From positions 1,007 to 65,006 of the forward strand of contig JAPYUM010000014.1 in the NCBI GenBank assembly GCA_029940535.1: a stretch of 64,000 nucleotides of DNA, in the 5' to 3' direction. This DNA is from Vicinamibacterales bacterium (lineage in GTDB: Bacteria; Acidobacteriota; Vicinamibacteria; Vicinamibacterales; UBA8438). Below are positions 21,652-29,229 of the stretch, piece by piece. A model generated the notes under the pieces. The model made no database searches. It worked only from the letters and a program-made list of their open reading frames with translations, and was not told the DNA's origin. Position 1 is the stretch's first letter. Every line of letters starts with the position of its first letter. Made by a program: the position numbers and the translations under genes.

Positions 21652-23415
21652 ATGGACCTACACCGTTCCGTGTTCCGACCTGCCTCCGTGTCGCTTGCCG
21701 GAGTCGTGTTCTTGGCGCTGAGCGGCGTCCACGCCGTGGCCCAGTCCGCGGCACAGGAAGGTCAGTTCGTTCCTGTCACGGACGCCATGTTGCAGAACCC
21801 GTCGCCTGACGATTGGCTCATGTGGCGCAGGACGCTCGACGGCTGGGGGTACAGTCCGCTCGATCAGATCGACCGCGACAACGTGGGCGATCTGCAGATG
21901 GTCTGGACCCGGGCGCTGGCGCCCGGGGCTCAGGAGGGCACGCCCCTGGCCTACGGCGGCACGCTGTATATGCCGAATCCGAACGAAATAGTGCAGGCAA
22001 TCGACGCGGTTACCGGCGACCTGCGGTGGGAGTACCGACGCGACATTCCGGACGATGTCGCCGAGGTGATGGGTGGGCTGACCGAGAATAACCGGAACAT
22101 CTCGATTTACGGCAACCTCATAATCGACACGGCCAACGACGACTACATCTACGCCCTCGACGTGGGCACCGGCGAACTGGTCTGGGAAAATCAGATTTTT
22201 GACTATCGTGTCCATCCGGCGCGGCACTCGGCGGGCCCGATTGTCGCCAACGGGAAAGTGATCTCCGGGCGGAGCTGCCGGCCTCGAGCCGGGCCGGTGT
22301 CCTGTGTGATCCTCGCGCACGATGCGGTCACTGGCGAGGAGCTCTGGCAGACTCGCCTCATTCCGCGCCCGGGTGAGCCGGGTGATGAAACCTGGGGTGG
22401 CGTGCCCTACGAGGAGCGGATGCATGTCGGGTCGTGGATGGTACCGAGCTACGACCCCGAGTTGAATCTCGTCTATGTCGGCACTTCCGTCACGTCGCCG
22501 GCGCCGAAGTTCATGCTGGGCGGCCACGAGAACCGTCACCTGTATCACAACTCGACACTTGCCATTGACGGCGACACCGGCGAGATCCGGTGGTACTACC
22601 AGCACCTCAACGACCACTGGGATCTCGACCATCCCTACGAGCGGTTGTTGGTCGATACCGCGGTGACACCGGACGCGAGTGCGGTGTCCTGGATCAACCC
22701 GCGGCTGCGGCCGGGGGAGACTCGAAAGGTGATCACCGGCATTCCCGGCAAGACCGGCGTGGTCTACACGCTCGATCGGGAGACGGGGGAATTTCTCTGG
22801 GCGACGCCGACCGTTCCACAGAACGTCATCAGCAGCATCGACGGCGCGACCGGCGCGGTGACTGAGAACGCCGAGGTCGTCTTTACCGGGCTGGGGCAGG
22901 AGGTGGTGTCCTGTCCTTCCTGGGCTGGCGGCAAGAACTGGCCCGCCGGCGCCTATAGCCCGTTGACCAATACCATGTATTTTCCGCTCAAGCAGACCTG
23001 CGCACGGGTACTGTCGACGATGGACGGGGGGCTCGCCATCTATCGTCTGGCGGCCAGATTCGAGCTGCCACCAGGCGTTGAAAATCTTGGCACCGTGCGA
23101 GCGATCTCGGTCGAGACGGGGAAGACGAGCTGGTTGCACGAGCAACGCGCCGCCACTCACTCGTTGGTCGCCACCGGCGGGGGACTGGTGTTCGGGGGCG
23201 ACGGCAACGGGCGGTTCCGCGCCTTTGACCAGGAGACGGGCGAGGTGCTGTGGGAGATCAATCTCGGCTCGCCCGTCACTGGGTTTCCGATCACCTACGC
23301 GGTCGATGGACGGCAGTACGTGGTGGCGAGCACCGGGACTCGCACCGAGGGGCTCACCCCGGAACTGCGGCCGAGCGCCGGCAACAACCTGTTCGTCTTC
23401 GCCCTTCCGGACTAG
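21652..23415 (+). CDS. PQQ-dependent dehydrogenase, methanol/ethanol-family-like propeller, no cytochrome domain (PQQ-E)
   Basis: 587 aa, with signal peptide. [33 protein letters not shown]; repeated propeller W-motifs; ends FVFALPD. Confidence 0.85.
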   Translation: MDLHRSVFRPASVSLAGVVFLALSGVHAVAQSAAQEGQFVPVTDAMLQNPSPDDWLMWRRTLDGWGYSPLDQIDRDNVGDLQMVWTRALAPGAQEGTPLAYGGTLYMPNPNEIVQAIDAVTGDLRWEYRRDIPDDVAEVMGGLTENNRNISIYGNLIIDTANDDYIYALDVGTGELVWENQIFDYRVHPARHSAGPIVANGKVISGRSCRPRAGPVSCVILAHDAVTGEELWQTRLIPRPGEPGDETWGGVPYEERMHVGSWMVPSYDPELNLVYVGTSVTSPAPKFMLGGHENRHLYHNSTLAIDGDTGEIRWYYQHLNDHWDLDHPYERLLVDTAVTPDASAVSWINPRLRPGETRKVITGIPGKTGVVYTLDRETGEFLWATPTVPQNVISSIDGATGAVTENAEVVFTGLGQEVVSCPSWAGGKNWPAGAYSPLTNTMYFPLKQTCARVLSTMDGGLAIYRLAARFELPPGVENLGTVRAISVETGKTSWLHEQRAATHSLVATGGGLVFGGDGNGRFRAFDQETGEVLWEINLGSPVTGFPITYAVDGRQYVVASTGTRTEGLTPELRPSAGNNLFVFALPD

Positions 23416-24104
23416 TAATCGGCGGCTTCGACTCGCCGCAGGAGATCGATGGCCGTGGTCGCCGCCGCGCGCTCTCCGGAGCGAAGTTCGCGAGCCAGCA
23501 CGCCGGTGACGTTCGCCACCGCCAGGCTGAGACCACTCAGCTCGTTCGTTGGCGCCACTCCCGGCATCGGTCTCGGGTAGCCGGATGCGTGACACGTGGG
23601 CGGCCCGTCGTCACGGTCGTCGACCCTTACGTCCAGCCGCGGACATCCCCAGTCCAGTTCGACCGGGACGACGCCCGGCAGGCTCCCCGGCAGATAGTCG
23701 ACGCCATCATGCGCTCGAGCAGCGACGAGGAGCGCGCCGGCGCGGGACGCGTCCTCGACCGCCTGTCGCAACCGGCGTGCAGGGCCCGGCACCGTGGTCC
23801 CGAGACTGAGATTGATCAGGTCGACCTGTCGGCGAGCGGCCCAGACAATGGCCGAGACCAGGGTCTTCACCGGTGCCGTGAGGGCCCAATCGAACACCTT
23901 CACCACGAGCAATTCGGCCCCCGGCGCGCGCTCCTGTATGGCCGCGGAGACGGCCGTCCCGTGGCCGAGCCGATCGAAGTAGTCAGGAGAGGTCGAGCCG
24001 TCCGGTCTGATGGTCACGCCCATGGCGACCGGCCCGATCTGTGGGTGAGCGAGGCTCACACCACTGTCGATGACCGCCACGCGAACTGGCTCGTCTGGCA
24101 TCAC
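23412..24104 (-). CDS. Small signal-less subtilase (S8)-like protein, possibly with a degenerate oxyanion hole
   Basis: 230 aa. VAVIDSGV (Asp), GHGTAVS (His), INLSLG, and GLSLAVANVTG in place of GTSMAxPHVxG (Ser). The AAGN motif reads AARA. No signal peptide. Confidence 0.6.
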   Translation of the reverse strand: MMPDEPVRVAVIDSGVSLAHPQIGPVAMGVTIRPDGSTSPDYFDRLGHGTAVSAAIQERAPGAELLVVKVFDWALTAPVKTLVSAIVWAARRQVDLINLSLGTTVPGPARRLRQAVEDASRAGALLVAARAHDGVDYLPGSLPGVVPVELDWGCPRLDVRVDDRDDGPPTCHASGYPRPMPGVAPTNELSGLSLAVANVTGVLARELRSGERAAATTAIDLLRRVEAADY

Positions 24105-24164
24105 GGTCAGACGATGCTGGCTCCGGCACCGGCGAGAGGCGTCGGTCCCAGGGTGACCGGTGGG

Positions 24165-27127: not shown

Positions 27128-27147
27128 CTGATTCTGCCCTCAGGACA

Positions 27148-29229
27148 CTAGCTGGCTTTCTTGCTCGCCACGGCGGCGACAAGCTCGGTCTGAACTGACA
27201 CCGGCACCGGCCTGTAGCGCGAGAACTCCATGGTGAACTCGGCTTTTCCCTGCGTAGACGAACGCAAGGTCGTGGCGTAGCCGAACATCTCGGCTAGCGG
27301 CACCTCCGCTTCGGAGATCGTGATGCCGCCAACCTCTTGCTGTCCGATGACCGTGCCGCGTCGCTGCAAGATGGTCGTCAGGACACTGCCCGCGAATTCG
27401 GTCGGGGCTTCGACCCCCACCCGCATGATCGGCTCGAGCACTTTCGGTGCGCCTCTGTCATAGGCTTCCCGCCAGGCGGCTTTTGCCGCTTCTTGGAACG
27501 CGACGTCCGAGGAGTCGACAGAGTGACTGGCGCCGTCGTTGAGCACGACCCGCACGTTGACCACGGGCGCCCCAATCTTGCGCCCCTGGGCCAGCATGGC
27601 CTTCATCCCCTTTTGCACCGCCGGAATGAACTGGCGCGGAATCACGCCGCCCTTGATCTCGTCCACGAATTCGAAGTCACCATCTGGATTGGGCTCGATA
27701 TATCCCGCGACGCGGCCGTATTGTCCGGAGCCACCGGTCTGTTTCTTGTGCGTGTAGTTGTACTCGACCCGCCGGCTGATCGTCTCGCGATAGGCGACCT
27801 GCGGTGGCGAGATTTCCACGTCCACCTGATACTCACGCTTCATGCGCTCGATATAGACCTCGAGCTGCAGCTCGCCCATCCCGTGGATGACCGTTTCGCC
27901 CGACTCGTTGTCGGACCCGGCCCGAAACGTCGGGTCTTCCTTGGTGAAGCGCTGCAACGCTTTCGTCAGGTTGACCTGCGACTTGTTGTCCACCGGTTTC
28001 ACCGAGAGCGAGATGACCGGTGCCGGCACGTGCATCGAGGTCATGCTGACGTTGATCTTGCCATCGGTGAACGTGTCGCCGGAATGACAATCCAGTCCGA
28101 AGATGGCGACGATGTCGCCAGGGCCGCACGACTCGATGTCTGCCATTTCCTCCGAGTGCATGCGGACCAGACGTCCGACCTTTGACTGCCGGCCAGTCCG
28201 GGAATTCGTGATCACGGTGTTCTTGGTGAGGTGCCCCTGGTAGACCCGCATGTAGGTCAGCTGTCCATAGCGGCCGTCCTCGAGCTTGAAGGCCAGCGCG
28301 ACGGCTGGTCGCTCGGCGTCCGCGTCGAGCACGATGGCGGCTTCGTCGTCGGTATCGAGATCGATGGCCTCGTTGATGACGTCTCGAGGATTCGGTAGGT
28401 AGTCACAGATGGCATCGAGGACGGTCTGGACCCCCTTGTTCTTGTAGGCGGAACCGACGAGCACCGGTGTGAGCTGCAGGGAGAGCGTGCCGTTGCGGAC
28501 GGCGGCGCGGATCAAGTCTTCGGTGACATGCCCCTCCAAGATGGCTTCCATCAGCTCATCCGAGAACATGGACACGGCGTCCAACATCTCCTCACGGTAG
28601 TGCTCCGCGTCCGCCCGCAGCTCGTCCGGAATCTCCCGGTCCACGACCTCCTCCCCGAATGCGCCCTCGAAGTAGATGGCCTTCATTCGAACGAGGTCGA
28701 CGACGCCCTGGAACTTATCCTCCAGGCCGATCGGGAGCTGGAGCAGTACCGCGTTGTGGTCCAGTTTCTCGCGGAGCTGGTCTCGAACCCGGACCGGATC
28801 GGCGCCCACGCGATCGCACTTGTTGACGAATGCGATGCGAGGCACCTTGTACCGGTTCATCTGTCGGTCTACCGTGAAGGATTGGCTCTGGACGCCGGCC
28901 ACGGAGCACAACACCAGCACCGCACCGTCGAGCACCCGGAGACTTCGCTCAACTTCGATGGTGAAATCGACGTGCCCCGGCGTATCAATGATGTTGATGT
29001 GGTGATCGCGCCACGTGGTGTGGGTGGCGGCGCTCGCGATGGTGATGCCGCGCTCTCGTTCGAGCTCCATCGAGTCCATCTTGGCCCCAATACCGTCCTT
29101 GCCGCGTACATCGTGGATGGCATGCACGCGGTCGGTGTAGTACAGAATCCGCTCAGACAGGGTCGTTTTTCCGCTATCGATATGGGCGGAGACCCCGATG
29201 TTTCGGATGGTTTCAAGATCCTTGATCAC
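27148..29229 (-). CDS. fusA: Elongation factor G, mitochondrial-EFG1/spd-type sequence signature, outside a str operon
   Basis: 693 aa. G1 [10 protein letters not shown]3 DTPGH, G4 NKCD. The block LSERILYYT...[24 protein letters not shown] matches mitochondrial EF-G1-like proteins rather than the E. coli-type GAATMDWMEQEQERGITI. Confidence 0.92.

Follow-up and report, generated by a model that had tools for sequence, protein, structure and literature searches.

Results

Organization of the locus

The window analyzed here is a 64 kb stretch of contig JAPYUM010000014.1 from a Vicinamibacterales bacterium (Acidobacteriota), with a guanine-cytosine (GC) content of ~65%; the closest homologs are labeled Acidobacteria, and the flanking quinoproteins fall in an acidobacterial family. 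It contains a run of four minus-strand genes that encode, in the direction of transcription, an elongation factor G (EF-G), a protein joining a KaiC-like ATPase domain to a SLOG-like domain (hereafter the partner), an ABC-F ATPase and a small S8 subtilase (Table 1). The EF-G gene and its partner are the main subject of this work; the ABC-F and S8 genes are considered below as their neighbors. Successive genes are separated by 20, 62 and 60 nucleotides (partner/EF-G, ABC-F/partner and S8/ABC-F, respectively), and all four open reading frames (ORFs) have a coding-type GC content at third codon positions (0.79-0.83). The ORF coordinates thus reproduce the layout given in a preliminary description made from the letters alone, namely four minus-strand genes with these gaps and a 316-nucleotide upstream spacer. 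That description saw no obvious terminator hairpin between the genes, and likewise no terminator-like site was found between the four on the minus strand, in a scan that is uninformative at 65% GC.

Table 1. Coordinates of the genes, domains and intergenic regions at the locus (window positions)
Feature	Position	Strand	Description
S8 subtilase gene	23412-24104	minus	230 aa
ABC-F gene	24165-25775	minus	536 aa; not in the conserved unit
KaiC-like/SLOG partner gene	25838-27127	minus	429 aa
Partner C-domain, SLOG-like Rossmannoid (predicted)	25841-26395	minus	residues 245-429
Partner N-domain, KaiC/RecA/DnaB-like P-loop ATPase (predicted)	26408-27127	minus	residues 1-240
EF-G/partner spacer	27128-27147	minus	20 nt, GAGGG inside; EF-G TAG to partner ATG
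EF-G gene (spdEFG1 type)	27148-29229	minus	693 aa; opens the conserved pair
Region upstream of the EF-G gene	29230-29545	minus	316 nt; promoter/leader, without defined element
PQQ-dehydrogenase-like gene upstream of EF-G	29546-31540	minus	

The KaiC/SLOG gene is always preceded by EF-G

Twenty-eight homologs of the KaiC/SLOG protein were aligned, and a scan of one genome per GTDB species yielded 80 loci. These were searched by tblastn with all four window proteins, and gene positions were taken from the tblastn and hidden Markov model (HMM) coordinates. At every one of the 52 full-length fusion loci with upstream DNA, immediately upstream of the fusion and on its strand is a gene for an EF-G that shares 46-94% identity with that of the window. 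The gap between the two genes is usually 7-20 nucleotides (range -13 to 306 over the 52 loci). In the window it reads TAG-tgtcctGAGGGcagaatcag-ATG, and a spacer of 20 nucleotides is too short to hold a promoter or terminator of its own, so that EF-G and partner are expected to be co-transcribed. Pairwise identities of EF-G and partner, compared over 41 loci, are correlated (r=0.90), which argues that the two are inherited as a unit. No EF-G gene was found beside the stand-alone form of the SLOG gene (0 of 27 loci). The paired loci belong to Acidobacteriota, Myxococcota (including four complete Sorangium genomes) and unclassified metagenome-assembled genomes (MAGs). Four pairs (L019, L023, L035 and L069) lie on MAG contigs labeled 'uncultured Rickettsiales'; their GC content of 66-74% is unlike that of Rickettsiales, and these labels are probably wrong.

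The other two genes of the run behave differently, as neither an ABC-F gene nor an S8 gene stands beside the fusion at any of the 52 other fusion loci from this genome scan. The preliminary description had proposed a four-gene module, to be checked by the conservation of its neighborhood, and held that finding the fusion apart from its EF-G, ABC-F or S8 neighbors would refute it. The EF-G part of this neighborhood is borne out at 52 of 52 loci and the ABC-F and S8 parts at none; the fusion does occur elsewhere apart from ABC-F and S8, and not apart from EF-G. These comparative data suggest that EF-G and the KaiC/SLOG gene very probably constitute a real, conserved two-gene unit, with ABC-F and S8 lying outside it.

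The EF-G of the pair is an spdEFG1

The window EF-G matches TIGR00484 with 960 bits and contains all five EF-G domains, with canonical G1, G3 and G4 motifs (G4 being NKCD). Its switch I carries the KDG insertion that is the hallmark of spdEFG1, a subfamily defined by this three-residue insertion (Margus 2011, PMC3150367) and reported to be subfunctionalized for translocation and to be the ancestor of mitochondrial EF-G1 (mtEFG1) (Atkinson 2015, PMC4342817). When PDB sequences were searched with phmmer, mtEFG1 scored 766 bits (6ydw, 6vlz) and the best bacterial EF-G 674 bits. The insertion is present, ungapped, in all 44 partner-linked EF-Gs, as KDG, RDG, KDN, KDS, ADG or SDG. Like spdEFG1 and mtEFG1 in general, the window gene lies outside the str operon. 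By these features the window EF-G is classified as a regular spdEFG1 member and not as an aberrant paralog. The preliminary description had called it atypical, a view corrected by the KDG insertion, the best scores to mtEFG1 and the intact G motifs, which are typical of spdEFG1.

The pair nevertheless departs from spdEFG1 as published in two respects: no partner gene has been reported for the subfamily, whereas the window pair has a KaiC-like one, and the published range, made up of spirochaetes, planctomycetes and Deltaproteobacteria, now comes to include Acidobacteriota. The gene-context analysis of Margus 2011 was limited to the genes that E. coli has (PMC3150367), and a partner without an E. 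coli ortholog would presumably have been missed for this reason. Separately, one metagenome locus of low GC content (L122, 0.34) has a KDG-bearing EF-G followed by rpsL, which encodes ribosomal protein S12, and no KaiC-like gene; this arrangement is unlike both the str operon and the EF-G/partner pair.

Stand-alone partners follow spdEFG1 in metagenomes

The pair was also approached with EF-G as the starting point. A scan of JGI metagenomes with the back-translated switch-I motif GKDGVGAxMDSM[ED]LER gave 80 loci with GC contents of 0.34-0.72; 38 of these were informative, having a complete EF-G 3' end and at least ~1 kb of downstream DNA. A KaiC-like gene lies directly downstream of spdEFG1 on the same strand at 26 of the 38. 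Only two of these 26 partners are KaiC-SLOG fusions. The remaining 24 are stand-alone proteins of ~235 residues (227-244) that align to residues 1-236 of the window partner and share its N-terminal motif SP[LI]R[IV][LF]E...GGL..G.LGV...A..G[VI]GKT. No third gene is common to the 24 loci with a stand-alone partner.

In a rough, midpoint-rooted neighbor-joining tree of the EF-Gs, partner-less spdEFG1 sequences are basal, and those with stand-alone and with fused partners form sister clades, in which the partner is present at 27 of 30 informative loci. Partner type, stand-alone ATPase or ATPase-SLOG fusion, thus tracks EF-G phylogeny. As far as so rough a tree can be read, this indicates that the ATPase partner joined spdEFG1 once and was then kept, and that the SLOG fusion marks the branch to which the window belongs. 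A full-text literature search, to which the main SLOG survey was external, turned up no publication that connects EF-G with a KaiC-like or SLOG protein, and none of the curated families in Pfam and NCBIfam or of the PADLOC models covers the partner or the pairing.

The partner N-domain is predicted to be a RecA/KaiC-type ATPase

The N-terminal domain of the partner carries a Walker A motif (ARAGVGKT) and a Walker B motif (IIIDG). All 34 partners compared, fused and stand-alone alike, have the Walker A Gly and Lys, and the ATP-binding site is evidently under selection. Sequence searches place the domain weakly, with matches to AAA_25/KaiC and, in NCBIfam, to RadA; no Pfam or NCBIfam model reached its cut-off, the nearest being KaiC_arch_3/4, ArlH, FlaH and RadB. 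A profile search of the PDB returned a DnaB-like helicase (E 7e-7). The AlphaFold2 (AF2) model of the full-length partner has a predicted local distance difference test (pLDDT) score of 82, and Foldseek matched it to KaiC, T4 gp41/DnaB, T7 gp4, RadA and RAD51 paralogs (E~1e-10). The Walker motifs and the predicted RecA-like fold together place the domain in the RecA/KaiC/DnaB P-loop superfamily. The earlier KaiC-like ATPase call therefore stands, on a weak AAA_25/KaiC match in sequence and a strong match in predicted fold to KaiC, DnaB, gp41 and RadA.

Among characterized proteins, the KaiC clock protein is one of the best fold matches and shares with the partner a P-loop with Walker A and B motifs and a RecA-like core. 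KaiC, however, has two tandem domains, phosphosites and the partners KaiA and KaiB, whereas the window partner has only one ATPase domain, and neither kaiA nor kaiB turned up at the surveyed loci. ArlH/FlaH, KaiC_arch_3/4 and RadB have one RecA/KaiC-type P-loop domain of ~230 residues, as does the partner; ArlH, itself small, regulates an NTPase motor larger than itself by binding to it. The partner differs from ArlH-type proteins in scoring far below the family cut-offs and in its neighbor, a translational GTPase and not a secretion ATPase. Neither the KaiC-type EE catalytic pair nor the phosphosites are conserved across the partners.

The C-domain belongs to a widespread, highly conserved family

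The full-length Foldseek matches were dominated by the ATPase domain, and the C-terminal domain was therefore modeled separately (AF2, pLDDT 92). Its sole meaningful fold match in the PDB was 3imk (template modeling score 0.66, probability 1.0, E 4.5e-3), which we take to be a member of the cpYpsA SLOG family; the remaining matches were to generic Rossmann folds (E>0.07). In Pfam, YAcAr (E 0.047, 14 bits, cut-off 28.2) and cpYpsA (E 0.25, 11.5 bits, cut-off 26.2) both fell below their thresholds. The SLOG-like domain named in the preliminary description is accordingly upheld at the level of predicted fold, by 3imk, and not at that of Pfam, where no SLOG family reaches its cut-off. Two glycine-rich motifs, SGGANGAE (in general form SGGAxGAE) and GGTGWGAE, are invariant. 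The GAE of the C-domain agrees with GxD/E, the signature of the YpsA-like SLOG clade (Brzozowski 2019, PMC6459960).

The YpsA/cpYpsA/YAcAr proteins, predicted nucleotide or ligand binders (Brzozowski 2019, PMC6459960), have a Rossmannoid fold, glycine-rich loops and the GxD/E signature, as does the C-domain. Unlike YpsA and cpYpsA, the C-domain lies under every SLOG Pfam threshold, forms a highly conserved family of its own, is fused to a KaiC-like ATPase and has no conflict-system context. Its family comprises 580 clusters at 50% identity (E<1e-10). A stand-alone form of ~182 residues, annotated 'hypothetical protein', shows 55-60% identity among Desulfobacterota, Nitrospinota, Binatia, spirochaetes and others, and its gene neighbors vary: recQ is upstream in Binatia, and recG is nearby at one locus (L053). 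The same SLOG-family domain was also seen in two giant proteins, P0365 (2884 residues, domain at 2338-2513) and P0389 (3957 residues, domain at 77-253), the rest of whose length has no Pfam match.

A natural fusion joins EF-G domain I to KaiC and SLOG domains

In P0265, a protein of 738 residues, an EF-G domain I (sharing 44% identity with its window counterpart over 310 residues) precedes a KaiC-like and a SLOG domain. Identical copies came from a TARA assembly and at least two others, independent of one another and all marine (L084, gene at 7971-10187; also L085 and L086). The P-loop (GNIDAGSST), switch I and DTPGH motifs of its EF-G part are destroyed, and the G' half is well kept. Divergent feoAB genes adjoin the P0265 gene, and no full EF-G gene lies upstream. 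Fusions of this type are a classic sign that two proteins interact physically, and this one would make domain I the probable contact. A second link to a translational GTPase comes from three related 'Deltaproteobacteria' MAGs (L070, 7727-10087; L062; L066), in which the stand-alone SLOG gene lies directly upstream of a gene for a 603-residue protein that is TypA/BipA-like, as read from its sequence.

The ABC-F gene is a lineage-specific neighbor

The ABC-F protein has two ABC_tran domains and the ABC_tran_Xtn linker of Pfam, without a membrane domain. Its best NCBIfam model is PRK15064 (YbiT), at 635 bits and thus under the cut-off of 762. The preliminary description took it to be a single-site ABC-F, and this proves apt: ATP site 1 is canonical and site 2 is degenerate. 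At site 2, the signature of the first nucleotide-binding domain (NBD1) is LDDGD (LDDGDKVR), the NBD2 Walker A (SRNSVAVTA) has no Lys and the NBD2 Walker B (LILDGP) no Glu. With this Lys and Glu lost, site 2 is predicted to be unable to hydrolyze ATP. The loss is common to ~110 ABC-F homologs down to 61% identity, including proteins from Kofleriaceae (Myxococcota) and Acidobacteria, whereas the distant homolog at L076 (55% identity) retains both residues. E. coli YbiT has the same architecture of two ABC domains and a linker, and its site-2 ABC1 signature is already degenerate (VAPGW; bioRxiv 10.1101/2023.06.15.543498); the window clade goes beyond YbiT in that NBD2 no longer has its Walker A Lys or its Walker B Glu. 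By this conservation, the one-active-site ABC-F is a real and stable clade, and it is unlinked to the EF-G pair.

The ABC-F gene follows the pair in the four closest relatives (L082, L083, L087 and L088), its presence there being confined to fusion proteins that share at least 91% identity with that of the window. At L082 (91%) ABC-F is present and S8 is absent, and at L081 (79%) a convergent Band_7 gene follows the pair, with no ABC-F. Homologs of the ABC-F protein with 80% and 67% identity have unrelated gene surroundings, and the sole ABC-F gene near another spdEFG1 is 7 kb off on the opposite strand. ABC-F was considered as a third member of the unit and rejected, being absent at fusion identities of 79% and below and having its homologs elsewhere. 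It adjoins the pair only in the genus-level lineage of the window and is a separate translation factor. With the two families described above, the analysis defines three that are at present unannotated: a KaiC-like EF-G partner of ~235 residues, a SLOG protein of ~182 residues, and the one-active-site ABC-F clade.

The S8 gene lies on an insertion or deletion

The S8 protein matches Peptidase_S8 and, with 161.4 bits against a cut-off of 165, the NCBIfam model NF049966 (QhpE). It has no signal peptide, and its catalytic residues (D13, H48 and the Ser of GLSLA) appear intact, in line with the small, cytoplasmic, protease-like protein of the preliminary description. The gene overlaps the convergent gene for a pyrroloquinoline quinone (PQQ) protein by 4 nucleotides at its 3' end. 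Two close relatives of the locus, L087 and L088, have a fusion protein 95% identical to that of the window, flanking DNA ~94% identical and the same gene order (beta-lactamase, glyoxalase, PQQ, EF-G, KaiC/SLOG, ABC-F, convergent PQQ, DeaD, DUF5916). They lack S8: 13 nucleotides separate ABC-F from the convergent PQQ gene, and relative to them the window S8 gene sits on an indel of ~744 nucleotides (23417-24161). By this comparison, a strain-specific insertion or deletion accounts for the S8 gene, which lies outside the unit. The suggestion that the protease is a component of the module fails on its absence from the ~94% identical syntenic relative and from all other loci.

QhpE itself is a protein of ~220 residues with no signal peptide and a D/H/S triad, which the S8 protein matches over nearly its full length. 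QhpE sits in the quinohemoprotein amine dehydrogenase operon, whereas the S8 gene lies between an ABC-F and a PQQ quinoprotein gene; no qhpA, qhpB, qhpC or qhpD gene was recognized among the window ORFs scanned (~12-40 kb, where the neighbors are PQQ quinoproteins, DeaD and Tex).

Flanking regions

The 316-nucleotide leader of the EF-G gene yielded no defined element. No sigma-70 consensus was found in it, in a promoter scan that is uninformative at 65% GC; the whole window has zero Rfam matches at gathering thresholds, and a permissive Rfam search of the leader gave only a chance match (E 0.82). Its fold stability does not exceed that of shuffled sequence (z=-1.15), and the GAAAGG ribosome-binding region is the only part common to the leader and its relatives. 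A short hairpin (e.g. TCGCA...TGCGA; 29245-29275, minus strand) lies 20-30 nucleotides 5' of this GAAAGG site, and equivalent EF-G leader hairpins occur at L081, L002 and L022, with a sequence that varies among relatives.

Three paralogous genes for PQQ-dehydrogenase-like beta-propellers lie within 19 kb, at 21652-23415 (plus), 29546-31540 (minus) and 38059-40359 (plus). They belong to the 'acido-empty-quinoprotein group A' and methanol/ethanol family, and two have N-terminal cytochrome c domains. At 12031-20449, at most 15 kb from the pair, are genes for an RlmN-like radical S-adenosylmethionine protein, Tex and a DeaD/DbpA RNA helicase; the DeaD and DUF5916 arrangement is common to the window and its closest relative L087 and is not found in more distant relatives.

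Discussion

A proposed dedicated ATPase partner for spdEFG1

We favor the reading that the two genes form an operon encoding an spdEFG1 and a dedicated KaiC-like ATPase partner, and we regard this as moderately probable. How the partner would act is a more tentative matter, and the proposal that it serves as a regulatory cofactor of EF-G is somewhat less likely than not. In this proposal, EF-G and partner would be co-transcribed and translationally coupled, and the partner would bind EF-G through domain I (G/G'). An ATP-binding and probably oligomeric switch would set how active the translocase is, its nucleotide state or how much of it is available, with the SLOG domain feeding in a small-nucleotide ligand in the lineage of the window. 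In its most far-reaching form, a large spdEFG1 clade would have an obligate, operon-encoded KaiC-like ATPase, acting as an ATP-dependent accessory elongation factor or switch on domain I, and in Acidobacteriota and Myxococcota a SLOG sensor would tie translocation to a small-nucleotide signal; this version is possible but doubtful. The preliminary description had imagined a nucleotide signal modulating the ribosomal factors of the locus, and we retain that for EF-G, as an idea only, and not for ABC-F.

Several observations weigh against the favored reading, and the case for a function of the pair is wholly comparative. By tblastn and the family HMM, 12 of the 38 informative spdEFG1 loci have no KaiC-like gene, so the partner is not required by every spdEFG1. 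Most of these partner-less EF-Gs belong to basal lineages, and three loci fall inside partner-bearing clades. Seven residues discriminate partner-bearing from partner-less EF-Gs, three of them in G', a difference that is not significant. The KaiC-type Glu pair being unconserved, the ATPase domain may bind ATP without hydrolyzing it. The C-domain, for its part, is assigned to SLOG by one predicted-fold match (E 4.5e-3) and sub-threshold Pfam scores, and neither its ligand nor its role has to be tied to translation, given a stand-alone form found in many phyla and its RecQ and RecG neighbors.

Alternative explanations

An alternative that shares much of this evidence is that the partner acts on the EF-G protein itself, either as an ATP-dependent folding or assembly factor or as an enzyme whose modification or demodification of spdEFG1 switches it on or off. 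The modifier could be a KaiC-like kinase, or the SLOG domain could have a LOG-like N-glycosidase or an ADP-ribose-processing activity. The synteny and fusion data fit this as they do the favored reading. Autophosphorylation occurs in single-domain KaiC-like proteins such as ArlH, SLOG enzymes of the LOG type rely on a PGGxGTxxE motif, to which the invariant GGTGWGAE of the C-domain is similar in spacing, and EF-2-family factors are classic targets of ADP-ribosylation. Most partners found from the EF-G side, however, have no SLOG domain, so that SLOG enzymology is not the core function, and no conserved pair of KaiC-like Ser/Thr phosphosites was identified in the partners. We consider an enzyme or chaperone of this kind unlikely, if still worth bearing in mind.

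The KaiC/SLOG protein could instead act on DNA, in recombination, repair or transformation, as a RadA/Sms-like or RecA-DprA-like protein that shares with EF-G a transcription unit only. Its N-domain resembles DnaB, gp41, RadA and RAD51 paralogs, with a weak NCBIfam match to RadA. The SLOG superfamily is named for SMF/DprA and LOG and includes nucleic-acid binders, DprA being a RecA loader, and the gene for the stand-alone SLOG protein comes after recQ in Binatia and lies near recG at L053. Against such a role stand the strict adjacency to one EF-G subfamily in two phyla and with two partner architectures, the fusion to EF-G domain I and the adjacency to typA. In addition, the best fold match of the C-domain is YpsA-like and not DprA, and the locus conserves no further gene of DNA metabolism. 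A role on DNA is accordingly improbable.

Least probable is the four-gene, translation-linked stress or conflict module first proposed, in which the SLOG/KaiC protein would sense a nucleotide and control EF-G and ABC-F, with S8 as effector or processing enzyme: the common strand, short gaps and lack of terminator-like sites, the two ribosome-binding NTPases, the ABC-F gene after the pair in four relatives, and PADLOC matches of S8 (a generic subtilase model and IetS, E 0.0086) and of ABC-F (mad3, E 3.7e-39, and generic ABC/AAA models) are outweighed by the loss of S8 in an otherwise syntenic relative, the distribution of ABC-F given above, the zero PADLOC matches of EF-G and fusion, and their vertical inheritance. 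Across the pair loci no other gene is common and no effector is linked, and most lineages sampled from the EF-G side have a partner without a SLOG sensor domain, contrary to a conflict role. As a conserved module it is refuted by the survey of neighborhoods, and the four-gene arrangement could survive at most as a lineage-specific operon.

Implications

Two of the four genes, ABC-F and S8, can thus be dropped from the proposed module, and what remains is an EF-G paralog with an ATPase beside it. EF-G is among the most thoroughly studied of all proteins, and it is not known to require anything beyond the ribosome and GTP. As an analogy only, fungal eEF3, an ABC-F-type ATPase, works beside eEF2 in elongation, and so places an ATPase alongside an EF-G/EF-2-type translocase as we propose for the partner. 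The partner differs from eEF3 in being RecA/KaiC-type and not ABC-F-type and in sharing neither homology nor gene context with it. If true, a dedicated ATPase partner, conserved in a large clade of one EF-G subfamily in two architectures and at least two phyla, would be a new component of bacterial elongation. It would also offer, for the first time, a functional clue to the existence of spdEFG1 as a paralog of its own, and would raise the question of what replaced the partner when spdEFG1 became mitochondrial EF-G1.

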